A stretch of DNA of 64,000 nucleotides from Candidatus Portnoybacteria bacterium (GTDB taxonomy: Bacteria > Patescibacteriota > Minisyncoccia > Portnoybacterales > GWB1-42-6), in NCBI GenBank assembly GCA_016208745.1, contig JACQXN010000006.1, positions 67 to 64,066 on the forward strand. Reading direction: 5' to 3'. Positions 4,699 through 59,465 of the stretch are shown piece by piece (position 1 is the stretch's first letter; each line of letters opens with the position of its first letter). The position numbers were made by a program, and so were the translations under genes. The notes below the pieces were generated by a model. The model was not told the origin of the DNA. It was given only the letters and a program-made list of their open reading frames with translations, and did not search any database.

Positions 4699-4702
4699 AA
4701 TA

Positions 4703-6369: not shown

Positions 6370-6470
6370 ATCCGTATAAGCCGATTTACGCTAACCAATT
6401 TAACGCTACTTCACGCCAAATCTTGCGTTTTATTTGGCTTCTAAATTTTTATTGGCGTTCATCTGGGCTT
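6370..6470 (-). promoter_or_regulatory. upstream region of the rodZ-like gene with AATTTACGC-type repeats; 6428-6478 is near-identical to 4767-4815
   Basis: Direct comparison of the two intergenic sequences. Confidence 0.45.
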
Positions 6471-23583: not shown

Positions 23584-23622
<39 letters not shown>

Positions 23623-23918
23623 GATATTGAGTATTTAGCCTTGGCACAATAGTCGTGCCGGATTCCGACAAGGTAGTCTTGGCCTCGCCGTACTTAAGAA
23701 CAATAACTAGGAGCATAAAACCGTTTTCGCTTACGGGGCTATTACCCTCTTTGGCACCGGTTTTCCATCCGGTTTCTGCTAACGAAGCCTTATAATTTGA
23801 TCTCCCTCTGGAACCTAATCAACAAGTCCAAGAAGTTTACCCTGAGCTTGTCGAAGGGCTCCAGAACGTTATTACCTTACAACACCCATACACCGCACAT
23901 CGCTGAGCTCTGTGCGTG

Positions 23919-24056
23919 AAATGTCTAATTTCTAATTATTCTAATTTCTAAGCAAATCCCAAATTTTTAAATATCCAATAATAAAAAGTAGTATTTTGTC
24001 ATTGGAAATTGGAAATTCATTAGATTAATTAGACTAATTAGGTCAATTAGAAATTT
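23919..24056. repeat. 138-bp AT-rich palindromic element (arms AATTTCTAATT...ACCTAATT / AATTAGGT..AATTAGAAATT) inserted at a 23S domain I helix tip
   Basis: Same family as 24154-24247, 50463-50597 and 51001-51138; complementary flanking rRNA sequences close the helix. Confidence 0.6.
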
Positions 24057-24153
24057 CGCACGAAACGCAGTGAAGTGCGGTAGATGGGTTTAGGCTCTTC
24101 CCTTTTCGCTCGCCGCTACTGGGGGAATGAGCGGTCTCGCAATCGCTCGCCGC

Positions 24154-24247
24154 AATGTCTAATTTCTAATCCCTAATTTATCTAATCCAGTCCCGCAGGG
24201 CGGGACATTTTTAGAATAATTAGGTTAATTACGAATAATTAGAAATT
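24154..24247. repeat. 94-bp AT-rich palindromic element of the same family inside 23S, with a central gtcccgc/gcgggac hairpin
   Basis: Arm sequences shared with the other family members. The flanking rRNA motif GCGGCGAGCGA is duplicated across the element, consistent with a closing helix. Confidence 0.6.
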
Positions 24248-24327
24248 GCGCGTATCGAACGATAGTGAGATCGCCTTATTTTCTTTTCCTCCGCTTACTA
24301 GAATGTTTTACTTCAGCGGGTTAACTC

Positions 24328-24618
24328 CTGCTCAGATTTTTGGAGGGGATCATATTTATAGACGATCCCCCTAATAAATTAACATGCCCTAAGGCCTGTA
24401 TCATTGTATGTGACCAGGGCCACAAATGTCTCGCCAACGATAGCCAATGCGGTCGAAAGAACTTCGGGTTGTTCTTTTTTTTCCCATTGATTAATCTCTT
24501 CTCTTAATCGTACCATTGCACCCAAAGCATTCTCTGGCGGAACTCTTTCCACAACAAATTCCATTACCATACTATGTCCTCCTTTTTCAGAATTATTTAC
24601 TCCAAAAATCTGAGCAGG
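24328..24618 (-). other. intervening sequence of about 290 nt near the 23S 5' end, closed by a 19-bp inverted repeat (CCTGCTCAGATTTTTGGAG / CTCCAAAAATCTGAGCAGG) and containing a protein-coding ORF
   Basis: The insertion lies between conserved 23S segments (..GGGGAAACCC.. and ..GAAGTAAAACAT..), and the stem is a perfect 19 bp. Confidence 0.65.
24379..24570 (-). CDS. 63-aa hypothetical protein encoded inside the 23S intervening sequence (MVMEFVVERVPPENALGAMVRLREEINQWEKKEQPEVLSTALAIVGETFVALVTYNDTGLRAC)
   Basis: AAAGGAGG lies 7 nt upstream of the ATG. The longer track ORF 24379..24669 would read through conserved rRNA. Confidence 0.5.
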   Translation of the reverse strand: MVMEFVVERVPPENALGAMVRLREEINQWEKKEQPEVLSTALAIVGETFVALVTYNDTGLRAC

Positions 24619-24948
24619 TATACCGATTTTATCGGTATGGGTTTCCCCATTCGGATATCCCCGGATCAAAGCTTGCTAGACAGCTCCCCGAGGCTTAACG
24701 CAGTCACGCCACGTCCTTCATCGCCTCAATATCCCTAGGCATCCACCATACACCCTTAGCCATCTGTCTAAATTTTTGCCCCCAAGCCAAAGCTTGGGAT
24801 TGCCACGCTAAGCGCGGCCTAGATGACTAATAATTAAGTAACCATTAACGTTATCTGATTCTCTAATTTCACCCCGTCCCACAATACATTTGTGGCGGGG
24901 TTCTTTTATACCTGCTATATTCAATTTTCAAGTTGCTATCATTTTTCA

Positions 24949-28539: not shown

Positions 28540-28583
28540 AAATTTGCCAGTTAGTATGCTATAGCATACTAACTGGCAAATTT
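28540..28583. promoter_or_regulatory. 44-bp perfect palindrome with core AGTATGCTATAGCATACT, downstream of 28614..29225
   Basis: Perfect 22-bp arms; the core is shared with 29194-29226. Confidence 0.5.
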
Positions 28584-28613: not shown

Positions 28614-29225
28614 CTATAAATCAAAAATGTTTTTTAAATACAAATCATTATCTATCTTCTCTATTACGCCATAAAGTATATGGGGTTTTATTTGATAAAA
28701 TTCCGCGATAAAGTTAATTTCGTCTTCGCATTCAAACGGATGCACAAAGACACTTTTCTGTAATTCGTGGAATCCTATCTTTTTTAATCTGAACCTGAAA
28801 GCATCCCGCGCCATTTTTTGTTCCTCCGGAATGTCAAAAATTACAATCCTCCATTTTCTATCCCAAGCCTGCTTCTTAATTCTCATATCTTCTAATTGGT
28901 ATTTTAACGCCTTTGTTTTTCCATTGTCAGCCAAAACCATTGAAATAACGCCATCTCTATCCGTTTTTATATTAACTAACTTTGACCGATATAGTTCTCT
29001 TATATCTTGTTTTATTCTATCTTCTTTTATTTGTTTCCACCCTTTTCCAATTGCTTTTACTATATGAAATTGCCGTTCCGGGGAACGGTTAAGACAAAGA
29101 GCAGCGCCGCCCATCAATATAAGTAAAATTTTCTTTTTGTTGGTATTTAAATCACTCACTTTATTTATTTTTATTATACGCCATATCAATTTTGGAGTAA
29201 ATATGCTATAGCATAGTAACTCCAA
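28614..29225 (-). CDS. protein with a C-terminal Cas2/VapD-like domain (IVIFDIPEEQKMARDAFRFRLKKIGFHELQKSVFV) and an N-terminal possible winged-helix domain; PaaX-like architecture; flanked by related palindromes
   Basis: The C-terminal pattern resembles the Cas2/VapD fold signature (hh.YDh...RR.kh.k.L..yG.R.Q.SVF). Palindromes sit at the start and 30 nt after the stop. Confidence 0.4.
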   Translation of the reverse strand: MELLCYSIFTPKLIWRIIKINKVSDLNTNKKKILLILMGGAALCLNRSPERQFHIVKAIGKGWKQIKEDRIKQDIRELYRSKLVNIKTDRDGVISMVLADNGKTKALKYQLEDMRIKKQAWDRKWRIVIFDIPEEQKMARDAFRFRLKKIGFHELQKSVFVHPFECEDEINFIAEFYQIKPHILYGVIEKIDNDLYLKNIFDL

Positions 29226-31154: not shown

Positions 31155-31292
31155 AAATCTTTCCACGCGGAAAGATTTCTCTAAAATTATCTTTCCCCCG
31201 TGGGGCTAGAGTTGGCACCTCTCCTTCAATTATTTGAAGAAGGTTGTCGGCAGGTCATAGGGCTAGTTCCCTCGCTACACTCTGTAATAATT
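31155..31292 (-). promoter_or_regulatory. SAM-I (S-box) riboswitch with an intrinsic terminator, in the metK leader
   Basis: Minus-strand sequence ..TTATTACAGAG..GCGAGGGAACTAGCCCTATGACCTGCCGACAACC..GGTGCCAACTCTAGCC..AGATAA matches the S-box consensus. It is followed by the hairpin aaatctttcc-gcgt-ggaaagattt and a T-run. Confidence 0.7.
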
Positions 31293-31299
31293 ATTTTAT

Positions 31300-31346
31300 C
31301 CCCACACCAGAACGCTACAACCATGGGCACAAACCCATGGTGTGGG
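31300..31346. repeat. hairpin repeat family member R1 (CCCCACACCAGAACGCTAC..inner hairpin..CCATGGTGTGGG) in the metK leader
   Basis: Related copies lie at 35196-35250 and 41636-41756, with compensatory stem changes. Confidence 0.55.
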
Positions 31347-31363
31347 AATTTATTTTTCTAAAA

Positions 31364-31392
31364 TATTGTTTTAAGTTTATAGAAAAAAATTT
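31364..31392 (-). promoter_or_regulatory. candidate metK promoter TTGACA-N17-TAAACT (minus strand)
   Basis: Hexamers read on the minus strand, upstream of R1 and the riboswitch. Confidence 0.4.
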
Positions 31393-31513
31393 ATTGTGTC
31401 AAAAAAATTTATCCACAATATTAATTATTTTTCTTTTCTACTATTGAAAACTTGACAAAATAGATGCGCCTGCCATAGACTAATAATCAATACTATGGTT
31501 CTTTTTTTCTTGT

Positions 31514-31661
31514 GACCGCGTAGGCTTAAATGGTAAAGCGCCCGATCGTAATCGGCCTCGTGCTGGAGGGCATTTTAGAGAAGTTCAGTTAGCGTTGACG
31601 CGTAAACTGCTAACGAAGAATCCAAAAATGCGAGATGTCGGTTCGAATCCGACCGCGGCCA
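31514..31661 (+). ncRNA. tRNA-like structured RNA gene: canonical T-arm GTCGG-TTCGAAT-CCGAC plus acceptor 3' strand and a 5' acceptor/D-arm-like start, but about 148 nt long with extra internal hairpins. It could be a tRNA with an insertion or intron, or another tRNA-like RNA.
   Basis: Candidate promoter TTGACA..TAGACT at 31452-31481. Internal hairpins include CCGAT-cgta-ATCGG, CCTC-gtgctg-GAGG and GCATTTT..AAAATGC. Two terminator hairpins follow at 31730-31757 and 31762-31783. Confidence 0.45.
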
Positions 31662-31729
31662 CACCCCCACTTTTCTAAGTGCGGGACGAAAGTTTTTCTG
31701 GTAGGCACCTGTCCGGTGCCTTTCGCAGG

Positions 31730-31783
31730 GGTCGTCTATATGACGACCTTATTATTTTAATAGGCGCCATCAGCGCCTATTTT
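31730..31783 (+). terminator. two consecutive intrinsic terminators (ggtcgtc-tatat-gacgacc + T-run; aggcgcc-atca-gcgcct + T-run)
   Basis: Hairpins followed by T-runs on the plus strand. Confidence 0.55.
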
Positions 31784-31793
31784 CAAACAAGAA

Positions 31794-32120
31794 CTATAAT
31801 TCCGTCTTAATCAGAAACAATCTCTTTTTAAATCCGCCTCGTTTTTTATTTTTTAGCTTTTGCCTATCTTCAATCCCTTTCTTCGTCAAACCGATCTCCA
31901 ATATTAGAACATCTAATAATTCCTGAATATCAACAACTTCGTTAATAATTTAATCTTTACTTTTAGCGGCGATCAGCTCTTTTGCTTCCTCAAGCACTTT
32001 TTTCTTTATTTCTCTCAAATATTCTTTCTTGCTTAAAGTCCGCCAATATGGCTTTTCTCCCGCCGCTTCAATAATTTCTAGAATTCTATCTCTGATTAAT
32101 TTATTGTATTTTTTTATCAT
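31794..32120 (-). pseudogene. MazG-like nucleotide pyrophosphohydrolase (KLIRDRILEII.. type) interrupted by an in-frame TAA at 31950-31952; the C-terminal half continues in the same frame (..EVVDIQELLDVLILEIGLTKKGIEDRQKLKNKKRGGF..)
   Basis: Manual minus-strand translation. The 56-aa N-terminal part and the 52-aa C-terminal part are separated only by the stop codon. Confidence 0.5.
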
Positions 32121-32367
32121 CCTCTTCCTCCTTTTTACCTAAAAATTTTGCTATATAAATTGAGGCCAAAACGACAAAAAAAGTTATCGCTAAAGCATAA
32201 ATAAATTTAGCTAAAAGCGTATTTTGTTTTAGCGGAAAAAGGAAATCTATAAAAGCCTTGATCGCTTCATTCCAGGCCAAGCCAGCGACCAAACCAAGGG
32301 CGGTCATTACATAGCCGGCTGTGCTTTTGCGAATTTCCTCTTTTATTTTTTTCTTTTGTTCGTCCAT
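32101..32367 (-). CDS. small membrane protein (88 aa)
   Basis: ORF with two hydrophobic helices; overlaps the MazG-like start by 20 nt. Confidence 0.45.
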   Translation of the reverse strand: MDEQKKKIKEEIRKSTAGYVMTALGLVAGLAWNEAIKAFIDFLFPLKQNTLLAKFIYALAITFFVVLASIYIAKFLGKKEEEDDKKIQ

Positions 32368-32583
32368 TTTTTTGAGTTTTAATAATTAGACTATTTCGCC
32401 TGCTATTTATTATAACATTCTCTATTAATTATTAAAATCAGGAGAGGCCAGATCAAGAAAGGCTAACTATTGCTTTTTTTGACAAATGCTGTATAATATG
32501 GGAAATTATTCCTGTTCTTTACACATCCTGCCCTAACGGCTTAGCCGTGGGCTAAAATTATATAAAATCATAAGGAGGAGAAA

Positions 32584-33069
32584 ATGAACCCCGAAACAGC
32601 CCTATTTAATAAAGAGTCTCGATTTGGTGCAATCTACGCAGAACCAACAGCATGGGATGCAGCAGCCGAAAGACTTATGCTTTCTGCGCCCCCGACAATC
32701 AAAAATATTTTCTTTGATAGAGGGGATATAAAAAAGTTAAGAAAAAAAGTCGCAGAGGAAAAACCAAATCTACCAGACTGGGCAATATCAATGTTCTCAG
32801 ATGCATTGTATGACATTCTTGCGGACGAGAGAAGACCGATTGAAGAAGAATTTACAAACAGCATTGAGTCGCTTATGACAAAAGAGGCTGTTCTACCAAC
32901 CGATGATCCGCTACAATTCAGATTGAGGCTTAGCGACACGTTTGCCAGAACCCTCCAGGGATTTATGGGGGACATCGTCCCCGCAGAAAAGATTTTTTTT
33001 AAAAACTTCATTGAAGAAAACAATCGACCCGACGGCTTATTATCGCTTAGAGTCGTAATCCGAAAATAA
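32584..33069 (+). CDS. hypothetical protein (161 aa)
   Basis: Ribosome-binding site AAGGAGGAG, and a terminator follows. Confidence 0.6.
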   Translation: MNPETALFNKESRFGAIYAEPTAWDAAAERLMLSAPPTIKNIFFDRGDIKKLRKKVAEEKPNLPDWAISMFSDALYDILADERRPIEEEFTNSIESLMTKEAVLPTDDPLQFRLRLSDTFARTLQGFMGDIVPAEKIFFKNFIEENNRPDGLLSLRVVIRK

Positions 33070-33078
33070 CCCTCCTAT

Positions 33079-33104
33079 GGACAGCTTAACCGCTGTCCTT
33101 TTTT
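33079..33104 (+). terminator. intrinsic terminator ggacagc-ttaacc-gctgtcc + TTTTTT
   Basis: Canonical hairpin followed by a T-run. Confidence 0.7.
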
Positions 33105-33158
33105 AGTACGCAAATAGCGCAAAATTCTATGCAAATTGCGCTCATGCTAATAGCCCCC

Positions 33159-34451
33159 TTATGGCCGCTTCTTTTTAAAGCTAATCTTCATTGTAAAAAT
33201 CTTGTCTGAAGCAAAAATTTTGGCGGCGATAAAAACAAAAACAACAAAAAAGAAAGCTAAATATAAAATACCGTACCAGACGCTGGAAGTCTGGCCCAAT
33301 AGTAAATTTGGCGCGGCCATAAATGGGTGCGAGAATGGAATCAGCCAAATTAAAATTTTCATGCCAGAGGAGAAAGAAGAAACATCAAGAAACATAGTCA
33401 GGATATAGGGGATTAAAACTAAAACCATAAGCGGCGCGACAACTCCTTGCGCCGCTTTTGAATCTTCCGCAAAAGAGCCTAAAATTATCGCAATAGCCAA
33501 AGCCGCCAAAATTCCCAAAAAGAGAGAAAGACCAAGCATTAGATAATCGGGCGTGCTTAAAGTCAGTCCAAGCTGGGCAATCGCCGCTTTGGAAGCTTCG
33601 TCAGTCGCAGCCGCGCCGCCAATCGCACCGCCGGTTATTCCAGACATATAATAACGCATACCAAAAAGATAAACGCCGGCTGTGAGCAAAGCAACAAGAC
33701 CAGCTGCCATTAATTTCGAAGCCACAACCGCTTTTCTTGAAATAGGGCTTGAAAGCAAAGTTTCAAGGGTTTTATTTTCTTTTTCCGTGGCAATAGAGGT
33801 GGCGATAAGCTGAGAAGCTAAAACAATAACTAAAAATAAAATTATCGGAATAAAAGTGGTTTGCGAAGTGATGAATCCAGAAACCAAAGTCGGGCTGATA
33901 TTGGCCTGTTTTTCGCCGATAACAACAAAATCATCTGCCAAGACCGGTTGTTTAATTGCTATTGGATCTATCTTGGGATTAGAATTTGCCAATAGCTGAT
34001 TGCTCAACCCATCGTTTATGGCGCCGAGCGCGGCTTTTAGAATCTGGCTATTAACAGAGGCCATCACCGAAAAATTTTTCATTATAGTATAGACCTCCAT
34101 TTTTTGCGGTTGAAAATTCTTAATTCCAGCCTCAAAACCGCTTGGAATAATTAAGGCTACTTTTGCGTTTTTCTCTTTTGCTTTAGCGATAACTTCTTCT
34201 GCGCCGCCGCTATGGGAAACATTGGGCAGAAAATTAGTTTTTTCGATAATGCTTATTACTTGCTGAGAAGTCGCTGATTTATCTAAATCCAATATCTCTA
34301 TGGCCTGCGGCGCTTTGGCTTTTGATGTTTCTTTGCCGATTATTTTTCCGACAAAAACAAACACGACAACAATAACCAAAAGCGGCACCAGCATCTGCGG
34401 GGTCAAAAGCTCCTGGATTTCTTTTTTTAATAAAGTGAGAAATTTTTTCAT
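33159..34451 (-). CDS. ABC-2 type transporter permease
   Basis: N-terminal TM helix, large extracytoplasmic loop, C-terminal TM bundle; start/stop overlap with the ATPase gene. Confidence 0.75.
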   Translation of the reverse strand: MKKFLTLLKKEIQELLTPQMLVPLLVIVVVFVFVGKIIGKETSKAKAPQAIEILDLDKSATSQQVISIIEKTNFLPNVSHSGGAEEVIAKAKEKNAKVALIIPSGFEAGIKNFQPQKMEVYTIMKNFSVMASVNSQILKAALGAINDGLSNQLLANSNPKIDPIAIKQPVLADDFVVIGEKQANISPTLVSGFITSQTTFIPIILFLVIVLASQLIATSIATEKENKTLETLLSSPISRKAVVASKLMAAGLVALLTAGVYLFGMRYYMSGITGGAIGGAAATDEASKAAIAQLGLTLSTPDYLMLGLSLFLGILAALAIAIILGSFAEDSKAAQGVVAPLMVLVLIPYILTMFLDVSSFSSGMKILIWLIPFSHPFMAAPNLLLGQTSSVWYGILYLAFFFVVFVFIAAKIFASDKIFTMKISFKKKRP

Positions 34452-35179
34452 TATTTATTGATTGTCAATTTCATAAATACTTCTTCTAAATTACTAGCGC
34501 TATATTCTTCTTTTAATTGCCCGGCTGTGCCGATGTCATGAATTTTTCCTTTATCAATAATAGCGAGCCGGTGCGATAAAAATTCTATTTCCAGCATATT
34601 ATGCGATGAGAGCAGAACTGCCATTCCCTGCAAGGATAAATCGCGAACTATTTTTCTAATTTCCAAAGCGTTAATAACGTCTAGGCCGCTTGTCGGCTCA
34701 TCTAGTATCGCCAGCCTTGGTCGCGTCATCACGGTTCTGGCCAACAAAAGCTTTCGCGTCATACCTTTTGAATAGGTTTTGACCTTGTCTTTCAGGCGAT
34801 TTCCGAGCCCGCAGATTAAAACCGCCATATCAATATATTCTTTTTGCTTATTTTTTTCGTCACTAAAAAGAGCGGCCATAAATCTTAAATAACTTATGCC
34901 GCTCAAGTTTTTATAAGCGCCTGCCTCTTCAGGCAGATAGCTGATTATTTGACGCACTTTATCAGCCTGCTTGCGCACGTCCAAACCATAGATAGAGGCG
35001 CCACCATCACTTAAAGTCAGAACCGTCGCTAAAATTCTCAAAGTCGTTGATTTTCCCGCGCCATTTGGTCCAATTAGCGCAAAAATCTCGTTTTCTGCCA
35101 CATCAAAACTAATATCATCAACTGCCTTAATATTTCCGTAAGCTTTGCTTAAATTTTTAACCTCAACCGCGTTTGGCAT
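34451..35179 (-). CDS. ABC transporter ATP-binding protein
   Basis: Walker A GPNGAGKST, signature LSGISYLR-like, Walker B ILDEPTSGLD. Confidence 0.9.
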   Translation of the reverse strand: MPNAVEVKNLSKAYGNIKAVDDISFDVAENEIFALIGPNGAGKSTTLRILATVLTLSDGGASIYGLDVRKQADKVRQIISYLPEEAGAYKNLSGISYLRFMAALFSDEKNKQKEYIDMAVLICGLGNRLKDKVKTYSKGMTRKLLLARTVMTRPRLAILDEPTSGLDVINALEIRKIVRDLSLQGMAVLLSSHNMLEIEFLSHRLAIIDKGKIHDIGTAGQLKEEYSASNLEEVFMKLTINK

Positions 35180-35195
35180 ATTATTTATCTATTTA

Positions 35196-35250
35196 CCCCG
35201 TTACCAGAACGCCACGGGCGTAAGCCCGTGGTAACGGGGTTTACCCATTC
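35196..35250. repeat. hairpin repeat family member R2 (CCCCGTTACCAGAACGCCAC GGGC-gtaa-GCCCGTGGTAACGGGG)
   Basis: The shared frame CCAGAAyGCyAC is kept while stem positions are co-varied relative to R1 and R3. Confidence 0.55.
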
Positions 35251-35326
35251 GTACGAATAAGACAATGAAGGTTCAATAAGTTTTTTAATAGTGTTAATTA
35301 ATAAAAACTGGGTTTTATTTAATAAT

Positions 35327-36166
35327 TTATTTCAATAACTTGTTTGCATAATCCAAAGATGAATCGCCCGAAATCACAACGTCAAAACTATTTTTAAACT
35401 GCTCTAGATCCCGCTCTATGTCTTCGTTAAGAAACCCTATCTTTATTATATTCTTACAATCAAAACCTTTTATCATTTCAATATCAGCCGGCCGGTCGCC
35501 AAGCAATAAAACATTTTTCCTGTTTTCTATTATATCAAAAACAGGAAAATCCTGAATAGCGGTATCATCTTTATTCATATTATGAATAATTGGCTGTTTA
35601 ATCCTGATTGCTCTCCCGTTCTCGTCCCATTCAAACGCGTTTGAAATTATATGGATATTTTCATACAATCTATTTTCTTTTTCAAAATACATTGATATAC
35701 AATCGCCGCCCAAACCGCTTGAAGACATTATAACCAAGGGAATTTTATGCGCCCACAAAAAATCAACAAATTCGCCAAATCCTTCCCTTGTCTTAATTTT
35801 CCCAGACTCAACCACCGATTCTAGATCCTTTTTAGTTAAGCCGGATTTAATTAATAAATCAAAATGCGTCATCCACCATTCTTCCATTGCTTTTTTCTTT
35901 TCTTCAATTGGGATGCTTGGATTAATATCAATTGGATTATATTTTTCATAAAGCGCTTGGGCTTTTTGGGCGTAATCAGAAGTTAAATAATTCCCGTCGC
36001 GTAAAACTGAAATTAAAGAAGGTGTGCTTTTTCCATCAACAAAAGCTTTTGTTAAGGTTCTATCAAAATCGCTCAAAACATGCAAGTTATCCACTCCGTC
36101 CTCTAGAATTTTCTTTTTCAACCCTTCTAATCTTTCCTGATTTGGAATAATAACGTCTTGAGACAT
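35327..36166 (-). CDS. HAD-superfamily hydrolase, 5'-nucleotidase (UMPH-1)-like
   Basis: LSDFDRTLT (DxDxT) motif and a C-terminal GDRPADIEM-like motif. Confidence 0.65.
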   Translation of the reverse strand: MSQDVIIPNQERLEGLKKKILEDGVDNLHVLSDFDRTLTKAFVDGKSTPSLISVLRDGNYLTSDYAQKAQALYEKYNPIDINPSIPIEEKKKAMEEWWMTHFDLLIKSGLTKKDLESVVESGKIKTREGFGEFVDFLWAHKIPLVIMSSSGLGGDCISMYFEKENRLYENIHIISNAFEWDENGRAIRIKQPIIHNMNKDDTAIQDFPVFDIIENRKNVLLLGDRPADIEMIKGFDCKNIIKIGFLNEDIERDLEQFKNSFDVVISGDSSLDYANKLLK

Positions 36167-36199
36167 AATAATCTTCCCTCCTTTTTGATTACTATTTAA

Positions 36200-36228
36200 A
36201 TTTTAAACCCCTTATTAAAATAAGGCAA
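36200..36228 (-). promoter_or_regulatory. candidate promoter TTGCCT-N17-TAAAAT (minus strand) for the HAD gene; part of a 38-nt motif repeated at 37375-37418
   Basis: Hexamers plus AAAGGAGGG ribosome-binding site downstream. Confidence 0.5.
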
Positions 36229-36240
36229 CAATTTAAAAAA

Positions 36241-37350
36241 CTAATAAATAATTTGTTTTAATTCCGGCGCCGCAGAAACTTGTACAATTTTAAATGGCAG
36301 GCGCCCTAACACTTGCCCCTTGCTATTAACGATATCCACTCGCCATTTGCCCGGCGCAAGCCCTAGTCTATTATATGAGTAGCCGCGATAGCCGCCATCT
36401 CGGCCGCCAATAATTTCGTAATTAACTTTGCTTTTTTGGACCCACTCCTCCAAATTCGGATCATAGAAAAACCAAACATGATAAATTTCAGTTTTGATTT
36501 TAGTCGGCGCAAAAACAGCGGCATAAGTATAGACGCGTTGGCCGGGCTGCCAATGGACAACCGGGTTATAATCACGGAAAAAGACATACCATGGTTTTGG
36601 CTCAACCAGAATTTCCCAGCCATTAGAAGTTCTGGCAACTGAATGCGCAATAGCACCCTCTTTTAATGACAAAGGAATCGGCGGAATAATATTAGTAAAA
36701 TATAAGATATTTAAAATAAAGTATATTGCCGCTATCCCGCCAATTAACCATTTTTTGCTATGCTCTACTGGCTCGCGCACAAAAAAGCGAAGAATAAATA
36801 AAAACAAGGCAATAAATGCAAGGCTCGCCGCGCCGCTTAATAAAAATATGCTGTTGCCTATGCGGTCTAACGCAATTGGCATAGCAAAAACCAGATATAA
36901 AAAAATTACCGCAAAGAAAGAATATATTTGAATAATTAAATGCCGATAACGGCTGCGGAAAAATTCATTGCCAACCAGCAATAAAACCAACGCCGCCAAA
37001 AATGGCCAGCTAACAGCGATACTGCTGCTTTCTCCGTAAAAAATTAAAAAAGAGCTAAAAAGGCCGCCGATTGAAAATTGAAGAAAAAACGGAACGCCAA
37101 TTGAAATAAGTTCAAAAAAACGAATTTTTAAATGATGCCCCTGAGCGTAACGTAGGCGGATCTGATAAATATTAAGATAAATTATCGCCAGACCCGTCAG
37201 AATTAAATAAAAAATCATCAGTAAATTATCGTAAAGCAAATCAATCCGCCTCAAATATAAAATATGCCAGACAAATCCGATGATAAACCCAGCCGGAGAA
37301 ACGATGTGTTCAATTTTCTCATAACGCTTTATAAGGTCTTCTACTTTCAT
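36241..37350 (-). CDS. polytopic membrane protein with a C-terminal soluble domain (function unknown)
   Basis: About 8 TM helices. Confidence 0.6.
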   Translation of the reverse strand: MKVEDLIKRYEKIEHIVSPAGFIIGFVWHILYLRRIDLLYDNLLMIFYLILTGLAIIYLNIYQIRLRYAQGHHLKIRFFELISIGVPFFLQFSIGGLFSSFLIFYGESSSIAVSWPFLAALVLLLVGNEFFRSRYRHLIIQIYSFFAVIFLYLVFAMPIALDRIGNSIFLLSGAASLAFIALFLFILRFFVREPVEHSKKWLIGGIAAIYFILNILYFTNIIPPIPLSLKEGAIAHSVARTSNGWEILVEPKPWYVFFRDYNPVVHWQPGQRVYTYAAVFAPTKIKTEIYHVWFFYDPNLEEWVQKSKVNYEIIGGRDGGYRGYSYNRLGLAPGKWRVDIVNSKGQVLGRLPFKIVQVSAAPELKQIIY

Positions 37351-37374
37351 TGATTTTTTAGTTAGTATAAAAAT

Positions 37375-37403
37375 ATTTTAATCCCCTTCTTTAAATAAAG
37401 CAA
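37375..37403 (-). promoter_or_regulatory. candidate promoter TTGCTT-N17-TAAAAT (minus strand) for 36241..37350
   Basis: Same motif family as 36200-36228. Confidence 0.5.
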
Positions 37404-37418
37404 CAATTTAAAAAGCGG

Positions 37419-37440
37419 GATAAGAATTTATCCCGCTAAT
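37419..37440 (-). terminator. intrinsic terminator gcgggataa..ttatcccgc + T-run after 37451..38329
   Basis: Hairpin followed by TTTTT on the minus strand. Confidence 0.6.
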
Positions 37441-37450
37441 ACTCTCCTGC

Positions 37451-38329
37451 TTAAACTTTCATTTCCTTCCGCGCTTTATCGTGCAAAGCGGCTAGGCCAG
37501 CAAGCAATGTTAATTGTTGCGCCGGATTATCAACGTTGTGACAGCTAAACCTATAACCGAACCCTCTTTTCATATCAGATTCTGCGCCATAGACAGGGTT
37601 AAGGCCGCAAGCGTTTCCGGGGCAGCTCACATTCAACCGACCTTTTGTATCAGCAACATAAGCCTCAATATCGCGCCTGTCAAAGTCGCTCGCGCCTATC
37701 ATATAATCGTAGGCAATTTTCATTGCCTGAACCATTTCTTGAATTTGAGTACGCGGCTCTAAAGTTCTAAGCCATCTGACTAAATCAGGGCTATATTCTC
37801 CTCCAAGCGGCGCGCCCCTATCTAAAGTGACGTATGCCTCAACTATCAAAAGCTGGGGGAGACTGGAAGAAATTTCTCTTTCAAGCCCCGCGAAGCTGAA
37901 GAAAACGCCACAGCTGGCTGAAACTTTATTTGCTAAAGCCCAATCATATTTGTGTTCTCGGCCGGATCCAAAGCAGCGGAAACATTCTGCGCCAATAACT
38001 TTGTCTTTTCCTATACCCTTGCATCTTGGACACTTTTCCCCTGTTTCTTTTTTAACCTTTGGCAGGGGGACGCTGAATTTGATAAAACCATTTTCTTCGC
38101 CGATTCTGACAAAAGCATTATCAGAACCAAAATCTTTATCGAAGCTGGATTCAAAATTTGCGAAACCAAATTCTTTTTTGTAATCGGCAACTACGGGGGC
38201 GGCAGACAAAATATGGGCATCCGCCCCTACAAATTCCCTGCGAATACTTAAAATAATGGCTGGATTATTTCCGCCAGACCAGCCTAGCTCATACCAGCAA
38301 GGCGACCCGTCATGAGTGAATATCTTCAT
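37451..38329 (-). CDS. hypothetical protein with a CPRCKG..CFRCFGSG zinc-finger-like segment
   Basis: ORF only. Confidence 0.55.
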   Translation of the reverse strand: MKIFTHDGSPCWYELGWSGGNNPAIILSIRREFVGADAHILSAAPVVADYKKEFGFANFESSFDKDFGSDNAFVRIGEENGFIKFSVPLPKVKKETGEKCPRCKGIGKDKVIGAECFRCFGSGREHKYDWALANKVSASCGVFFSFAGLEREISSSLPQLLIVEAYVTLDRGAPLGGEYSPDLVRWLRTLEPRTQIQEMVQAMKIAYDYMIGASDFDRRDIEAYVADTKGRLNVSCPGNACGLNPVYGAESDMKRGFGYRFSCHNVDNPAQQLTLLAGLAALHDKARKEMKV

Positions 38330-38423
38330 TTGAAACCTCCTTTTATTTATGATTTTAAGAACAATTTTACCCTCATATTATTAAAATAGTCTATAACACA
38401 ATCCGGATCTTATCAAGATTTTC

Positions 38424-39653
38424 TTGCTTTATTTAATTTTTATATGCCATAATAAAATTATGAGGATATTATCAAATGATTTTTTTTCAAACGCCTTCCC
38501 TGCAAAACAAGTATCATCCGGCGGACCAGCGAGATTTGCGAAAAGCCTTTCCCAGGCAGCTATAAATGAAGGTGGCTCCTGGATTGGCATTATTATAAGA
38601 AACGAGAAAGAATCTCAGATTAAAATTGAAAATCTAAAAAAAGAAGGCCGCGCTTCCTATTGGAAACTTACGCTTCCTACTAAACTCTATAAAAAAATTA
38701 CGCTTGGCAAAAAAAATAATTCTCCTGAAATAATTTTAAAGCCTGTTATTGACAAGCTTAAATTATTTATTGAGAAAAGCCGACCGGATGTTATTTTTTT
38801 AAATGGCTTCTCTATATATGCATGGATAGTTTTGAAAGCGGCTTTTGAAACAAAAACTCCCCTGGTCATCAAACACGCTGGAATCCTCAAAAAAGAAATT
38901 GACATATATCATGATTTTTTCAGCAAGGCTGGGGCAAAAATCCTTTATGAGACTGAACGAGAAATTTCTGATATAGCAAGGTATGAGATATTTTTAAATA
39001 AATGGAGCTGGAATGTTTATAATAAAGAGGTTCGCAAAGTAAGTAAAAAACAAGGGGTAATCATACCGCTTCCTCTGCCAAACGGTTATATTTTAAAACG
39101 GCACAAACCAAAACGCGTTGAAAAAATAATTCATATTGGAATGGTGGCGCGCTGGGATAGAATAAAAAATCATCCGGCTGCCCTGGCTTTAGCCAAAAGG
39201 ATAAACGAACTCAAGCTTCCCTGGAAAATACATTCAATAACTTTAATCCCCGAAACAAAGCACAATCCGCAATTAAAAGAAGAGTATAAAAAATATATAT
39301 CTGTTGAAAAGCAAAGAAGCGCTGAAGCTTTAAAAAAATTCTACAGAAAAATGGACTTAATTATAATTCCTTCTCATTTTGATGTTTCCCCGGGTATTGT
39401 GCTGGAAGCTGTTTCAGAAGGAGTCGGCGTTTTAATTTCGCCCAACGTAGGCTGGGTTAGTGAATTTAAAAGAGCAGGCGCTGGCGAATGGATAATTGAT
39501 TTTTCAAACCCAGATAAAGTTGTAAGAAGAATTAAAAAACTAATCGGCAAAGAAATCCCCTATTCCTTGCTCAAATCAATAGAGGAAAATCATAATTCAA
39601 AAAGAGTTTTTGGAAAATATTTAGAAATTTTTAAAAAAGCAACAAAAATATGA
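38424..39653 (+). CDS. glycosyltransferase, GT1/GT4-like (start possibly the internal MRILSNDFF)
   Basis: C-terminal GT-B Rossmann region with a ..IIPSHFDVSPGIVLEA.. (E..E-type) motif. Confidence 0.65.
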   Translation: MLYLIFICHNKIMRILSNDFFSNAFPAKQVSSGGPARFAKSLSQAAINEGGSWIGIIIRNEKESQIKIENLKKEGRASYWKLTLPTKLYKKITLGKKNNSPEIILKPVIDKLKLFIEKSRPDVIFLNGFSIYAWIVLKAAFETKTPLVIKHAGILKKEIDIYHDFFSKAGAKILYETEREISDIARYEIFLNKWSWNVYNKEVRKVSKKQGVIIPLPLPNGYILKRHKPKRVEKIIHIGMVARWDRIKNHPAALALAKRINELKLPWKIHSITLIPETKHNPQLKEEYKKYISVEKQRSAEALKKFYRKMDLIIIPSHFDVSPGIVLEAVSEGVGVLISPNVGWVSEFKRAGAGEWIIDFSNPDKVVRRIKKLIGKEIPYSLLKSIEENHNSKRVFGKYLEIFKKATKI

Positions 39654-40711
39654 AAATAGCTCAACTTGTTTCAAATTTACATTCAGCTTCGCCTTTGGCA
39701 AATTACGCTATATATTCACATGTTGCCTGGCTAACCAACGGGCTGGTTGAGCTAGGACATAGTGTTGATTTATTCGCGGCCGGCGACTCCCAAACTAAAG
39801 GCGAACTTTCTTCTGTCACGCCCGAATCAACATATACAATACCAGATATGACAGAAGACATAAAAAAACATTATGTCCATCTTTTAATATCTAAATGCTA
39901 TAACCGCGCCAAAGAAGTTGATATTATTCATTCTCATTTTAATTTATTAAGCTCTTTTTATTCGAATATTGTCTGCACGCCAACCGTTCAGTCTATTCAT
40001 AGTCCGGTAAATGAAAATGTGCGCCCTTTATTATCGCAATTTAAAAATAACCGCTACATTTCTTTCTCTTTAGCACAACGAAAAGCTTTGCCTGAATTAA
40101 ACTGGATTGCCAATATATATCATGGCGTTGATACCGATTTATTTTCTTATAATCCAGACCCTCTGGATTATTTTTTATTTTTAGGCAGAGTTACAGAAGA
40201 CAAAGGCGTACATCTGGCTATTGAGGCTGCTAAAGCCGCAAATGTCCCTTTGATAATCGCCGGCAAGAGCTACCCAACAGAGGGTTATTGGCATGGAAAA
40301 ATTGAAGAGCATATTGATGGTAAAATGATTAGGTACGTCGGCGAGGCGGATTTTGAAAAGAAAATTGAATGGTTAAAAAAAGCTAAATGCTTGCTTATGC
40401 CAGTGCAATGGGAGGAGCCGTTCGGCATGGTAATGATTGAGGCTATGGCCTGCGGCACGCCAGTGGTTGGATTCAAGCGGGGCTCTATTCCTGAAGTTGT
40501 CGCTGATCGCAAAACAGGCTATGTTGTTGAAAATGTTTCTGAAATGGTTGAGGCGATAAAAAACATTGATAAAATCAGCCGTCAAGAGACGCGTAAACGG
40601 GCCGAAATTTATTTTAGCGTGGAAAAAATGGTTTCTGGCTACGCGAAAGTTTATCAACGCGTCATTGAAGAACATAAATTCCGCGAAGACAAGAAAAATA
40701 ACAAAAGCTAG
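39650..40711 (+). CDS. glycosyltransferase family 4
   Basis: FLGRVTEDKG.. and EPFGMVMIEAMACGTPVV motifs; 4-nt overlap with the upstream glycosyltransferase. Confidence 0.85.
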   Translation: MKIAQLVSNLHSASPLANYAIYSHVAWLTNGLVELGHSVDLFAAGDSQTKGELSSVTPESTYTIPDMTEDIKKHYVHLLISKCYNRAKEVDIIHSHFNLLSSFYSNIVCTPTVQSIHSPVNENVRPLLSQFKNNRYISFSLAQRKALPELNWIANIYHGVDTDLFSYNPDPLDYFLFLGRVTEDKGVHLAIEAAKAANVPLIIAGKSYPTEGYWHGKIEEHIDGKMIRYVGEADFEKKIEWLKKAKCLLMPVQWEEPFGMVMIEAMACGTPVVGFKRGSIPEVVADRKTGYVVENVSEMVEAIKNIDKISRQETRKRAEIYFSVEKMVSGYAKVYQRVIEEHKFREDKKNNKS

Positions 40712-40734
40712 TTTTTCTAACAAATAAAAATAAC

Positions 40735-40775
40735 GCGCTCCGTGAAAAAAGTTTAAAACGGAGCGCGTTATGAAT
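40735..40775 (-). terminator. 11-bp stem hairpin aacgcgctccg..cggagcgcgtt with a T-rich tail on the minus strand
   Basis: Hairpin and T-run on the minus strand. Confidence 0.5.
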
Positions 40776-40815
40776 ATCTGCTTCCAAAATATAACCTATT
40801 TTCTGCCGAAATTTT

Positions 40816-41283
40816 TTACATAGACAAGCAACCAAAACCGCCAAACCCCTTGCCGTGCTTTCCCATCATCTTTGTCATTTGCCCCATATGCTCTTCCATA
40901 AACTGCATACGCTGGTCAGCCTGAGCCTGAGTGATTACCCCCTGATCAACTAAGGTCTTTAAATAATCGGTCATCTGCTGTTTTCTTTGATCAGTCATTT
41001 TCTGTTTTAGCTGTTCGGTGGTAATGTTGTGCTCTTTGGCCAATTCTTCCAGGGTCTTGCCTTGAGCCCAAGCATTTTTTACATCATCAATGCCAACGCC
41101 CAATAAGTCAGCTTCTTTCTGAAACATTGTTTGCTGTTGTTGTGCCATCTGTTCGGGAGTGGCATTGTTGGCTGTACCCATTCCAAACATCCCGAAATGA
41201 AACCAGCCTTGAGCAGAGGCAACGCCTGCTATCGCAAGCCCCATGACAGGCAGAATCAAATAAAGAAGGTATCTTTTTTTCAT
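40816..41283 (-). CDS. secreted Gln/Met-rich hypothetical protein with signal peptide
   Basis: Signal peptide ending ASAQG. Confidence 0.55.
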   Translation of the reverse strand: MKKRYLLYLILPVMGLAIAGVASAQGWFHFGMFGMGTANNATPEQMAQQQQTMFQKEADLLGVGIDDVKNAWAQGKTLEELAKEHNITTEQLKQKMTDQRKQQMTDYLKTLVDQGVITQAQADQRMQFMEEHMGQMTKMMGKHGKGFGGFGCLSM

Positions 41284-41594
41284 AAACTTTAAAGTTAATA
41301 ATTATTTCTCTATTTTAATTTTAGATTAATAATTTTACTCTCCGTCCCGCTGAATTATACTCAGCAAATATTTTTACTGAGAGTTCGCAGGATTTCGACC
41401 TTTTCCAGCACAACGACGAGAGACAAGCCGTTCTGGATTATTATATAATACGACGCCTCTTATTTATTTATTTCGCTTATACGGTCTTCATTTAAGAAGG
41501 AAAGCAGGATGAACAATTCGCCTCTCATAGAAAGATAACCTTCATCCGGCTTTCATTAATTATTACAAATAAGGCACGGGATATATTACAAAAT

Positions 41595-41623
41595 TAAAAC
41601 GGGGATTTTGTCCCCGTTTTTTT
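41595..41623 (-). terminator. intrinsic terminator aacggggattttgtccccgtt flanked by T/A runs, downstream of the P-type ATPase
   Basis: Hairpin with U-runs on both strands. Confidence 0.6.
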
Positions 41624-41635
41624 ATACCCATAAAC

Positions 41636-41756
41636 AAACTTTGCCCCCACACCAGAATGCCCCACGCGTGAGCGCGGAGATAAATGGTGAAATGACCCCG
41701 CAGAGTATAGTCCCAATCCATGAGCGCAAACCCATGGTGTGGGGGTTTGCTAATCT
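41636..41756. repeat. hairpin repeat family member R3 (CCCCCACACCAGAATGCCCCAC ... CCATGGTGTGGGGG) carrying a ~70-nt internal insertion
   Basis: Terminal arms nearly identical to R1. Confidence 0.5.
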
Positions 41757-43797
41757 AGTACTTTTTAACTTTTAGCATTTTGGCATTTATCGCCACAACC
41801 ACAGTGCTTAATGACATAAAGATGGCTCCCAAAGCCGGCGAGAGCAAAATTCCAGAACCTGCCAAAACCCCTGCCGCCAATGGAATCGCCACTACATTAT
41901 AACCAGTCGCCCAAGCTAAATTTTGCACCATTTTTTTGTAAGTCGCCTTGCCAAAAAGAACGAGCGAGGCAATATCTATAGGATTGCTGTTGACTAAAAT
42001 TATATCTGCGGTTTCCGCAGCAATATCAGTCCCGCTGCCAATGGCAATTCCCACATCCGCCTGAGCCAATGCTGGGGCATCGTTTATTCCGTCTCCAACC
42101 ATCGCCACGTATTCTCCTTTAGATTGAAGCTCTTTAACTTTCTCTTGTTTTTGATGTGGCAAAACGCCAGCAAAATATCCATCCAGCTTCAACTCATTGG
42201 ATACATTTTTGGCAGAACTTTCATTATCCCCAGTCAGCATCCACATCTTGATTTTTTCTTTTCTTAATAACTTTATGGCATCATACGATTCATCTCGGAT
42301 TGTGTCGGAAAGATTTAAGGCACCGACTAAAGTCAGTCCATTATTTTCAACCGCCACAAATATCAGCGTGCCCTCCATTTGATTTAATGAATCTGGAGCG
42401 GTTAATCCCAGATCTTTCAAATATCCGGGGCTGGAAATTATTGTTTTTTTGTTATCAACGATTGCTTCTATGCCCCTGCCTTTTATTGCTTTAAAACTAG
42501 CTACTTCTAGTTTCCCAATTTTTTTGTTTTCCGCTTCAGCAATTATCGCTCTAGCAATAGGATGTTCGGAATTTTGTTCCAAAGCTGTAGCGATTTTTAA
42601 AATTTTGTCTTCGCTATAATTATTGTCCAAAGCATAAATTTTTTTTACACTGAATGTTCCCTTGGTTAATGTCCCAGTCTTGTCAAAAATAATTGTTGTT
42701 ATTTTTCTTGCGTTTTCAAAAGCCGTCCGATTTCTAATTAAAAGTCCGTTTTGGGCCGATATGGTCGTGGAAATCGCCACAACCAAGGGCACTGCCAATC
42801 CAAGAGCGTGAGGACAAGCAATAATAAGGACTGTGGCTGTCCGTTCTATTGCAAAGGCGATATCCTTGCCCAAAACAAGCCAAGTTACAAAAGTTATCGT
42901 TCCAATTGTGAGAGCGATGAGTGTCAGCCAAAATGCCGCTCTATCGGCCAAAAGCTGGGTTTTTGATTTTGAACTTTGGGCATTTTTCACCAGTTTTATC
43001 ACTTTAGAAAGATATGTCTCCTCGCCCACGCCCTCCACTCGTATTTCCAACGAACCCTCCTCCGTAATAGAGCCGCCAATGATTTTAGAATTTATTTCTT
43101 TTGAAACTGGTTTAGCTTCGCCAGTAAGCATTGACTCATTCACAAAACTTTCTCCTTTTGCTACAATCCCGTCAGTTGGAATTTTCTCGCCTGGTTTTAC
43201 TAAAATTATGTCTCCCCTTTTAAGCTCGCCAACATCCACATCAATCATTTCATTGCCTTTTTTAAGATGGGCTTTGTCGGGAATAAGTTGAGACAATTTC
43301 TCCAGGGCTCTTGACGCCCCCATTGCTGATTTCATCTCCAGCCAATGTCCCAAAAGCATAATATCAATCAAGGTGGCTAGTTCCCAAAAAAATACTTCGC
43401 CCCCAAGTCCAAAAGTTACCGCCAAACTATAAAAATATGCCACAGAGATAGCCAAAGAGATAAGCGTCATCATTCCTAACGCTTTATGCTTGATTTCTCC
43501 CACCGCGCCGACAAGAAATGGACTGCCACCAAAGAAAAAAACAAACGATGAGATTAATAATAAAATTATTTGGTCGTTTGGGAATCTGAAAGAAATATTC
43601 AGCAAATCTTGAATGAACGGAGAAAGAAACAAAATTGGCAAAGTCAAAGCCAAGGAAACATAGAATTTTCTTTTGAAATTTTCAATGGAATGGCCGGCGT
43701 GTTTATTATACCCTTCTTCCTGATCGTGATTATGTTTCATTTCTGCCATAGGCGAAGAATGGTTCATTTTCTCATGGTTATGATGATTGTGTTCCAT
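41755..43797 (-). CDS. P1B-type heavy-metal ATPase, CopB-like (His-rich N-terminus, CPH motif)
   Basis: DKTGTLT, CPH, MLTGDN and GDGINDAPAL motifs; N-terminal MEHNHHNH.. Confidence 0.9.
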   Translation of the reverse strand: MEHNHHNHEKMNHSSPMAEMKHNHDQEEGYNKHAGHSIENFKRKFYVSLALTLPILFLSPFIQDLLNISFRFPNDQIILLLISSFVFFFGGSPFLVGAVGEIKHKALGMMTLISLAISVAYFYSLAVTFGLGGEVFFWELATLIDIMLLGHWLEMKSAMGASRALEKLSQLIPDKAHLKKGNEMIDVDVGELKRGDIILVKPGEKIPTDGIVAKGESFVNESMLTGEAKPVSKEINSKIIGGSITEEGSLEIRVEGVGEETYLSKVIKLVKNAQSSKSKTQLLADRAAFWLTLIALTIGTITFVTWLVLGKDIAFAIERTATVLIIACPHALGLAVPLVVAISTTISAQNGLLIRNRTAFENARKITTIIFDKTGTLTKGTFSVKKIYALDNNYSEDKILKIATALEQNSEHPIARAIIAEAENKKIGKLEVASFKAIKGRGIEAIVDNKKTIISSPGYLKDLGLTAPDSLNQMEGTLIFVAVENNGLTLVGALNLSDTIRDESYDAIKLLRKEKIKMWMLTGDNESSAKNVSNELKLDGYFAGVLPHQKQEKVKELQSKGEYVAMVGDGINDAPALAQADVGIAIGSGTDIAAETADIILVNSNPIDIASLVLFGKATYKKMVQNLAWATGYNVVAIPLAAGVLAGSGILLSPALGAIFMSLSTVVVAINAKMLKVKKY

Positions 43798-50462: not shown

Positions 50463-50597
50463 AATTTCTAATTGACCTAATTTCTAATTGATTTAATCAA
50501 ATCCCAATGATTCAATAATTAATGCTAAATTAATTCCGGGATTTGGGTATTGGGAATTTTTTAAAATAATTAGGTTAATTAGAATAATTAGAAATTT
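50463..50597. repeat. 135-bp AT-rich palindromic element (AATTTCTAATTGACCTAAT.. / ..ATTAGGTTAATTAGAATAATTAGAAATT), same family as the 23S insertions
   Basis: Terminal inverted repeats and internal ATCCCAA..TTGGGTATTGGGAATT segments are shared with 23919-24056 and 51001-51138. Confidence 0.6.
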
Positions 50598-50598
50598 C

Positions 50599-51009
50599 CT
50601 AGCTCTCTTTCAGTTTTCCTTTTTCAACCAGCTTCTGATAAAGCTCATCTATTAAGGTGTCGTGGAATTTATCAATAAGATACGGGTCTTCCGAAGCTTT
50701 GGCCGCTTGAACTGCTTTATCTATGCCCTGCTCAAAAGCCATATCAACTAGAATTTTTAACTGCCGGTCTTTGCTTGCATCGCTTAAATCGTCGCTAGCC
50801 GCAGCTTGCGGCGACGGTCCGGGAACAGGCAACACAGAAGGCTCGATTTTTTGCTGAGCTGGAGCTTCTTCTGTTTTTTCTTTTTCTACTTCTGGAACCA
50901 AAAGGGTCTCTGGCAAAACAGACCTTTCAATTTTTGGCTCTGCGCCCTTTACATTTTCAGTTGGTTCGCGATAAGGATCAGGCATTCTTTGAAAATATCT
51001 AATTTCCAA
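50599..51009 (-). CDS. acidic hypothetical protein (136 aa), exactly bounded by two palindromic elements
   Basis: ORF only. Confidence 0.4.
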   Translation of the reverse strand: MEIRYFQRMPDPYREPTENVKGAEPKIERSVLPETLLVPEVEKEKTEEAPAQQKIEPSVLPVPGPSPQAAASDDLSDASKDRQLKILVDMAFEQGIDKAVQAAKASEDPYLIDKFHDTLIDELYQKLVEKGKLKES

Positions 51010-51138
51010 TTTCTAATTTCTGATAAAGATCCCAATGACTAATGTCAAAAAATTCAGGCATTTAAAAATTAGATATTTATTGGATATTGGATATTGGAAA
51101 TTATTTAGGTCAATTAGAAATTAGGTTAATTAGAAATT
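51001..51138. repeat. 138-bp AT-rich palindromic element of the same family
   Basis: Arms aatttccaatttctaatttc.. / ..ggtcaattagaaattaggttaattagaaatt. Confidence 0.6.
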
Positions 51139-59363: not shown

Positions 59364-59465
59364 AAAATATAGAGGCGAATTTACGCTAAATAAATCCACG
59401 CAAATTTACGCCAAATTTTTTGCGTTATTCTGGCGTGTATTTCCTTGGCGTTATTTTGCTTCTAT
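59364..59465 (-). promoter_or_regulatory. greA upstream region with two AATTTACGC / GCGTAAAT repeats 25 nt apart plus a TTGGCGTT repeat
   Basis: Same motif family as the recA and rodZ-like upstream regions. Confidence 0.45.

Follow-up and report, generated by a model that had tools for sequence, protein, structure and literature searches.

The 64-kb stretch of DNA analyzed here (the window) comes from the core chromosome of a metagenome-assembled genome (MAG) of Candidatus Portnoybacteria, and its genes, nearly all on the minus strand, include rpoB, rpoC, recA, ftsK, mreBCD, tRNA synthetase genes and an rRNA operon. Three short hairpin-forming repeats lie among them in untranslated DNA, antisense to the genes: one in the leader of metK, one in an operon spacer and one in a 3' untranslated region (UTR). 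We consider it very probable that these hairpins are copies of a family of miniature non-autonomous transposable elements (MITEs, or 'palindromic elements') that circulates in Patescibacteria. Exactly three copies are found in the window, all on the plus strand, one of them full-length (~101 nt) and two internally deleted, with a GC content of 58-67% compared with 39% for the window.

Copy 1 is a short, internally deleted element (31300-31348, plus strand) bracketed by the direct repeat TTTAT on its left (31295-31299, plus strand) and its right (31349-31353, plus strand). It retains the left arm CCCCACACCA, the box GAACGC, the hairpin CCATGGG-CACAAA-CCCATGG and the right arm TGGTGTGGG(AA), whose final two bases have decayed to AA. 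The element sits 6 nt 5' of the S-adenosylmethionine (SAM) riboswitch (31184-31293, minus strand) that precedes metK, and promoter-like hexamers (31402-31374, minus strand) lie upstream of it. Copy 2 (35197-35239, plus strand), also short, has variant arms (CCCGTTACC/GGTAACGGG); its box is AGAACGC and its hairpin CACGGGC-GTAA-GCCCGTG, and it is flanked by TTTAC at 35192-35196, where the last C could be assigned to the arm instead, and at 35240-35244 (both plus strand). It occupies the 147-nt spacer that runs from a UMPH-1/HAD 5'-nucleotidase gene (35327-36166, minus strand) to an ABC_tran ATPase gene (34451-35179, minus strand), and the start codon of the latter is 16 nt away. Copy 3 (41645-41745, plus strand) is the full-length element. 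Its arms are CCCCCACACCA/TGGTGTGGGGG and its box is GAATGC, and the interior forms three hairpins, P2 (~41661-41679), P3 (~41683-41710) and P4 (41718-41737). Its two flanks, at 41640-41644 and 41746-41750 (plus strand), both read TTTGC, which departs from the family consensus, and it has a terminator-like hairpin (41596-41620) on one side and on the other a P-type ATPase gene (minus strand), the stop codon of which is at 41755-41757.

An earlier note on this DNA had grouped the three hairpins into one family, and the frame count, a covariance model and folding against shuffled sequences all agree that this family is real. The 21-nt frame TTTRYCCCNNNACCAGAAYGC has three exact matches in the window and none in any of 100 dinucleotide-preserving shuffles. 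A covariance model made from 12 long copies, copy 3 included, and run in cmsearch with the filters off recovered copy 3 (E = 1e-26), copy 1 (E = 5e-12) and copy 2 (E = 2e-11), and all remaining matches in the window had E > 0.03, except for the reverse strands of the same sites (copy 1 reverse, E = 0.0016). The copies were also detected by nhmmer (copy 3, E = 4e-25), every copy folded more stably than its shuffles (z from -2.1 to -4.9), and a repeat search placed all three in a single repeat family (D6). The ranges first proposed for copies 2 and 3 were slightly too wide and are refined above, and the frame CCAGAAyGCyAC, attributed to all three copies, is present in copies 1 and 2 but not in copy 3, which reads CCAGAATGCCCCAC. 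The differences between the stems are as the note had described them, with three adjacent pairs changed on both sides (CCCCACACC/GGTGTGGGG versus CCCGTTACC/GGTAACGGG) and with different inner hairpins. It had overlooked the direct repeats that bracket every copy, the full length of copy 3 relative to the other two, which are deletion derivatives, and a hairpin block that the repeat search found to be common to copies 1 and 3 (D11).

The two short copies lack the middle of the element, and the covariance model aligns them with 47 positions deleted, which in copy 1 removes helices P2 and P3. The alignments indicate that both are products of internal deletion between the similar hairpins. Additionally, copies 1 and 3 have in common a genome-specific P4 hairpin, CCATG(G/A)GC(A/G)CAAACCCATGG, which identifies a copy-3-like element of this genome as the source of copy 1.

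Across the family, the ~100-nt form represented by copy 3 is the standard and short forms are the exception. Its layout can be written as TTTAC-CCCCCACACC-AGAAYGC-hairpin(GTAA)-GATGAATGG...GGGCATTG-hairpin(GTAA)-GGTGTGGGGG-TTTAC, that is, a central hairpin and two hairpins with GTAA loops that resemble each other, with the AGAAYGC box at the left end, enclosed by GC-rich terminal inverted repeats of 10-11 bp (CCCCCACACCA/TGGTGTGGGGG) that are nearly invariant in more than 20 copies. Element sizes range from 43 to 140 nt (~205 nt in one composite copy), which is too short for a transposase gene, and the elements have no open reading frame (ORF) of their own. Among the 12 long copies the four-helix structure is paired in 85% of cells, compared with 32-47% when partners are slid, and the terminal helix in 97.5%.

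The earlier note had argued from covariation that the structure, rather than the sequence, is selected, and this argument proved weak. Double changes in the terminal stem are confined to the three adjacent pairs of window copy 2, all other copies having the same arm sequence. Covariation in the internal helices has modest support, with 11 double-change cells against 5.2 in shuffles and 3 of 500 shuffles attaining the observed count. Mismatches in the arms are transitions on either strand, so that neither strand is singled out, and together with the near-invariance of the terminal helix this suggests that the arms behave as sequence-specific inverted repeats. A test of strandedness based on G·U versus A·C mismatches was abandoned; it favored the reverse strand in 10 long copies, but copy L063b has U·G on the other strand. 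Since the ends of the element are inverted repeats, their pairing reflects transposon architecture and not a selected RNA function. Matched changes in palindromes can also arise from template-switch ('quasipalindrome') correction, and the matched arm change of copy 2 could represent such a correction, a variant recognition sequence or selection for pairing.

Insertion of the element is documented at locus L054, one of the loci fetched from public sequences, in an O-antigen ligase ORF identical to protein P0121, which contains the translated-element peptide (FTPTPE...VWG). The Pfam Wzy_C match of this ORF spans the element and extends over 185 residues for 148 profile positions, and exactly the 35-residue block FTPTPEC...AVWG is missing from all seven of its closest homologues (52-58% identical). 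The insert corresponds precisely to the element plus one TTTAC (105 nt, 35 codons). The empty site of the nearest homologue (L091) reads CTG-TTTAC-TGTTTAC and the filled site CTG-TTTAC-[100 nt]-TTTAC-TGTTTAC; viewed by codons, the homologue has AAA CTG TTT ACT GTT TAC and L054 has AAG CTG TTTAC[100 nt]TTTAC T GTT TAC. For the three window copies no orthologous empty sites were found, the same strain being identical there and the nearest relatives (70% protein identity) not syntenic.

The flanks of other copies are consistent with duplication of the target. Identical sequences were found on both sides of 14 of 26 copies, and five of these identical pairs are not the consensus, namely TTTGC (copy 3), TTTAT (copy 1), TTGAC, CTTAC and TGAAT; a count of five was not attained in any of 100,000 permutations. 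When only the 22 full elements were considered, there were two such pairs (permutation p = 0.03). Mini-hairpins that consist of the two arms alone are nested inside other copies, each with a duplication of its own (in the GTAAG loop at L060 and the GATGAAT box at L004), and the same arms surround unrelated interiors at L073 13142-13240 and L058 69-125. A strand bias relative to flanking genes, which the earlier note had raised, is not apparent, with ~9 copies sense and ~13 antisense among ~22 non-redundant copies; an initial count in which 7 of 7 were antisense disappeared as more loci were added. Intergenic copies are flanked by complete, unrelated housekeeping genes, and at several of them the TAA stop codon of a gene is the TAA of the GTAAA flank. 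We also considered whether antisense copies split genes, and this was excluded, as the ORFs on either side are separate and complete.

About five of the 26 copies lie within ORFs, and most of the others are intergenic. The same frame (F-TPTPE...VWG-F) is read in the Wzy_C protein and in a SAM methyltransferase, as well as in a lipoprotein-like signal peptide and in an ORF of 451 residues that has no annotation, and an element with a variant interior is present in an Elp3-like radical-SAM ORF. All of the copies in ORFs are free of stop codons and keep the downstream frame, and the frames of the element are read solely as part of host ORFs. The signal peptide case (L067 156-833, minus strand) has the copy between the charged n-region and the hydrophobic h-region, giving MLSKNKKF, then 34 residues, then TLTLCLILLTMLGFGC; removal of the element and one flank repeat restores a signal peptide in which MLSKNKKF is joined directly to TLTLCLILLTMLGFGC. 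A GTG in the right arm is a candidate translation restart at this site.

Further copies are found outside the window, a check that the earlier note had proposed. By pattern scans, public genomes and metagenomes yielded ~23 additional non-redundant copies, nearly all of them in Patescibacteria MAGs, and with nhmmer and cmsearch the count of non-redundant copies was 23-24. When one genome per species was scanned with a structure-aware pattern, there were 42 matches, six of which are true copies; four Patescibacteria MAGs, including one of Doudnabacteria, contribute five of these loci and a 'Planctomycetales' bin the sixth, the remainder of the matches being due to chance in coding sequence of GC-rich genomes. 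A left-end scan of metagenome contigs gave 28 loci, of which ~20 are real. Several copies can occur on one contig, as with the three in the window and the two each on L063, L073 and L058, and intermediate deletion products were recovered at L030 and L066. Phage, plasmid and viral collections contained no copies, with matches either absent or coding chance matches only. In ~64 kb from the contigs that encode the nearest homologues of UMPH-1 (70% identical) and Wzy_C no copy was present, and a second example of the copy 2 arm variant was absent from the 756 kb of fetched DNA.

Some of these matches deserve separate description. Two contigs of 59% GC carry copies, L018 (7055-7099) and L004 (4981-5109), of which one belongs to the 'Planctomycetales' bin and the other to a Patescibacteria bin, and for which horizontal spread, mis-binning and high-GC lineages of the candidate phyla radiation (CPR) are alternative explanations. 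A perfect palindrome in Hymenobacter metallilatus (L023 4674-4731), CCCCTTTACCAGAACGCCCCGCA...TGCGGGGCGTTCTGGTAAAGGGG, is similar to copy 2 in arm and box but is probably unrelated and matched only through the design of the pattern. The composite copy of ~205 nt (L075 1866-2084) has enlarged hairpin loops, an internal hairpin with inverted rather than direct flanks (ATTCAT...ATGAAT), and ATTCATT in place of TTTAC as its right flank, which suggests a fold-back or template-switch rearrangement.

Insertion, which is documented by the filled and empty sites, duplicates a 4-5-bp AT-rich target, TTTA(C), with a constant orientation to this asymmetric sequence. As a mechanism, we propose that an enzyme encoded elsewhere would recognize both arms and move the element in trans, and in the simplest case this would be a DDE transposase that makes staggered cuts. 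Several observations weigh against a MITE of this kind. Neither the window, searched with Pfam, nor the tested ORFs of the fetched loci yielded an autonomous partner or a transposase with such arms; the window ORFs include no transposase, integrase or HUH protein and no match to Y1_Tnp or RAYT, and no transposase adjoins the four matches to the left end alone (L055, L072, L075b and L080). The comparison of empty and filled sites is made across genes that are only 58% identical and not between strains. In about half of the copies the two flanks differ at a single base, and in two copies (L030 and L069) a left flank TTTGC is paired with a different right flank. All ten copies that were found without a constraint on the flanks have TTTRY, and never GTAAA, on the CCAGAAYGC side, and such strict target orientation is unusual for cut-and-paste DDE MITEs. 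Additionally, the four-helix fold of the interior has been kept across lineages with some compensatory changes, which pure selfish decay would not predict.

These last points can be accommodated by transposition of a single strand, in which an HUH/Y1 transposase of the REP/RAYT type (repetitive extragenic palindromes and their REP-associated tyrosine transposases) or of the IS200/IS605 'PATE' type (insertion sequences and palindrome-associated transposable elements) takes the folded hairpin strand as its substrate. Insertion would then occur 3' of TTTAC and the element would carry a terminal TTTAC of its own, without a true duplication. The fixed orientation to TTTAC in the ten copies just mentioned would be expected of such an element, the target of IS608 being TTAC, and copies on the same contig are co-oriented (window, +++; L063, --; L075, ++), which has a chance of ~0.06. 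The conserved hairpin structure and the transition (G·T-type) mismatches in the arms also point in this direction, as does the complementarity of the GTAA loops to the flank TTAC and of the copy 3 loop GCAAA to its flank TTTGC. We nevertheless regard a single-strand element, the main alternative, as unlikely. Staggered-cut duplication fits better with the five non-consensus flank pairs that are identical on both sides, including nested ones unlike TTTAC; the inverted repeats run to the very ends of the element, in contrast to the subterminal hairpins without terminal inverted repeats of IS200/IS605; wobble-type mismatches are present on both strands; and neither a Y1_Tnp nor a RAYT gene was seen in the window or the ORFs tested. 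Loop-flank complementarity was examined as a possible guide to insertion and set aside, as the association across copies was not significant (hand count, Fisher p ~0.17). A more general version, in which the element is strand-specific and structure-guided, with folded single-stranded DNA or RNA as the substrate of an enzyme that is HUH-like or of another kind, fits the fixed TTTAC orientation, the co-oriented copies, the conserved four-helix interior and the loop-flank complementarity, and it is also rather unlikely in our judgment; if it were true, the choice of insertion site could be guided by the hairpin loops.

Explanations in terms of RNA agree less well with the distribution of the copies. 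The earlier note had suggested a structured RNA such as a processing or protein-binding signal, and a cis-acting RNA selected for its fold (as a terminator, as a binding site for a protein, or as a signal for processing or stability) would account for the stability of the fold relative to shuffles, for the four-helix consensus with GNRA-type loops, its pairing relative to slid controls and its double changes, and for the location of all three window copies in untranslated transcribed regions in one orientation. Across loci, this suggestion is left without support and appears very improbable: copies occur in both orientations relative to genes, are read through in-frame within ORFs and are missing from the empty site of the closest homologues, many copies have lost internal hairpins to large deletions or have them interrupted by nesting, and the GNRA loops of the window copies are on the strand antisense to the genes. 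There is no conserved gene association, and Rfam 15 gave no match at the gathering score over the window, with permissive searches of copies 2 and 3 returning sub-threshold noise only. It is even harder to credit an intron-like intervening sequence that is excised from RNA, with the terminal helix joining the two UUUAC repeats, as an explanation of the tolerance of copies in genes. The copies within the Wzy_C domain and between signal-peptide regions, the second with a signal peptide that removal restores, would suit this idea, as would the conserved core structure; yet the copies in ORFs are stop-free and frame-keeping, which translated insertions need and an excised intron does not, most of the structure is missing from the short forms, and the majority of copies are intergenic. 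No ribozyme or intron family was matched, and on reading the sequence no bulge-helix-bulge geometry was seen at the ends. The family is thus mobile selfish DNA and not a dedicated regulatory RNA.

The features that define a MITE are present here, apart from a cognate insertion sequence, which was not found in the window or in the fetched-locus ORFs that were tested: small size without a transposase ORF, terminal inverted repeats, target-site duplication together with an empty site, and multiple dispersed copies. The family resembles the MITEs of other bacteria, such as the Correia elements of Neisseria, ERIC, RUP and BOX (reviewed in PMC10969869), in these respects and in the location of its several copies mostly between genes and near gene ends, the nested insertions and deletion derivatives, and the hairpins added to transcripts. 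Unlike them, it has very short (10-11 bp), GC-rich inverted repeats in an AT-rich genome, inserts in strict orientation at an asymmetric TTTA(C), conserves an internal multi-hairpin fold between distant Patescibacteria lineages and appears to have a low copy number (three in 64 kb, and few public metagenome contigs). The palindromic elements of Rickettsia (RPEs) are found in-frame in unrelated protein genes, to which they add a peptide segment, and also between genes (PMC10969869). Our family is functionally analogous to RPEs, as both are palindromic (~100-150 nt), insert in-frame into ORFs and reside in bacteria with small genomes; the likeness seen is one of behavior. The host phylum is different, and the present elements are mostly intergenic, with clear target-site duplications and terminal inverted repeats.

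The term 'REP-like', used in the earlier note, is appropriate for a dispersed palindromic repeat family and inappropriate in the strict sense. REPs are 20-40 nt long, have a 5' GTAG-type tetranucleotide, do not duplicate their target, are extragenic and are accompanied by a RAYT gene. As with REPs and bacterial interspersed mosaic elements (BIMEs), the copies of the family are GC-rich imperfect palindromes scattered over untranslated regions, with compensatory changes in their arms, but the family's standard form is ~100 nt, it has duplications and copies inside ORFs, and the window has no RAYT-type Y1 transposase. Dependence on hairpins and a fixed orientation by an asymmetric TTAC-like motif are features it has in common with IS200/IS605 elements and PATEs. 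The ends of IS200/IS605 elements have subterminal hairpins, no terminal inverted repeats and no duplication; our elements differ in having terminal inverted repeats and variant flanks duplicated on both sides, and no TnpA or TnpB gene was found for them in the window or the ORFs tested.

The window copies add hairpins of -25 to -46 kcal/mol to the transcripts in which they lie, and these may incidentally affect mRNA stability or processing. By analogy with the Correia and ERIC elements (PMC10969869), it is plausible that host RNAs are affected by the hairpins at these places (metK leader, operon spacer and 3' UTR). The hairpins on the gene strand are followed by (G/A/C)UAAA and lack the U-runs of an intrinsic terminator, and the only terminator-like call among the copies was for copy 1, on the antisense strand.

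Other features of the window were also recorded. The 23S rRNA gene (19570-24769, minus strand) is 5.2 kb long and contains several large insertions (272, 148, 192 nt and more), one of which has an ORF (20585-21139, minus strand) for a LAGLIDADG homing endonuclease, typical of rRNA introns in CPR bacteria. AT-rich repeats of the AATTAGAAATTTC type form a second family, unrelated to the hairpin element (24002-24057, 24207-24247, 50543-50607 and 51069-51124), that is present in a 23S rRNA insertion and again in two intergenic regions ~26 kb away (D1 and D13). Boxes reading AAATTTACGC are repeated at 4702-4800, 6375-6464 and 59364-59429 (D4/D7/D10), and a 40-nt block occurs in two copies, 98% identical, upstream of recA and of an HTH_25 gene, with related boxes upstream of greA; they are a candidate shared operator or promoter, possibly SOS-like. 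A perfect 22+22-nt palindrome (28540-28583) and a related copy (29188-29221) flank a PaaX_M/Cas2-like regulator gene (28614-29225, minus strand), which adjoins a divergent GNAT acetyltransferase gene, and these palindromes are probably operators. Additionally, a 55-nt direct repeat, 80% identical, is located upstream of the UMPH-1 gene (36200-36254) and of a DUF2914 gene (37375-37429; D8).

The searchable literature yielded no description of MITEs in Patescibacteria, and the family described here is new, although it belongs to a well-known kind of selfish DNA. A practical consequence concerns annotation, where copies can be mistaken for regulatory RNAs, as beside the metK SAM riboswitch, and where they lead to 16-35 spurious residues in predicted proteins. 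The presence or absence of a copy at a given site could also be used to mark strains. The genomes of Patescibacteria (CPR) are tiny and streamlined, and this one family is common to several of their lineages. The fact that the element can sit in-frame within enzymes and membrane proteins suggests that selfish DNA still shapes the genomes and proteins of CPR bacteria, as RPEs do in Rickettsia.

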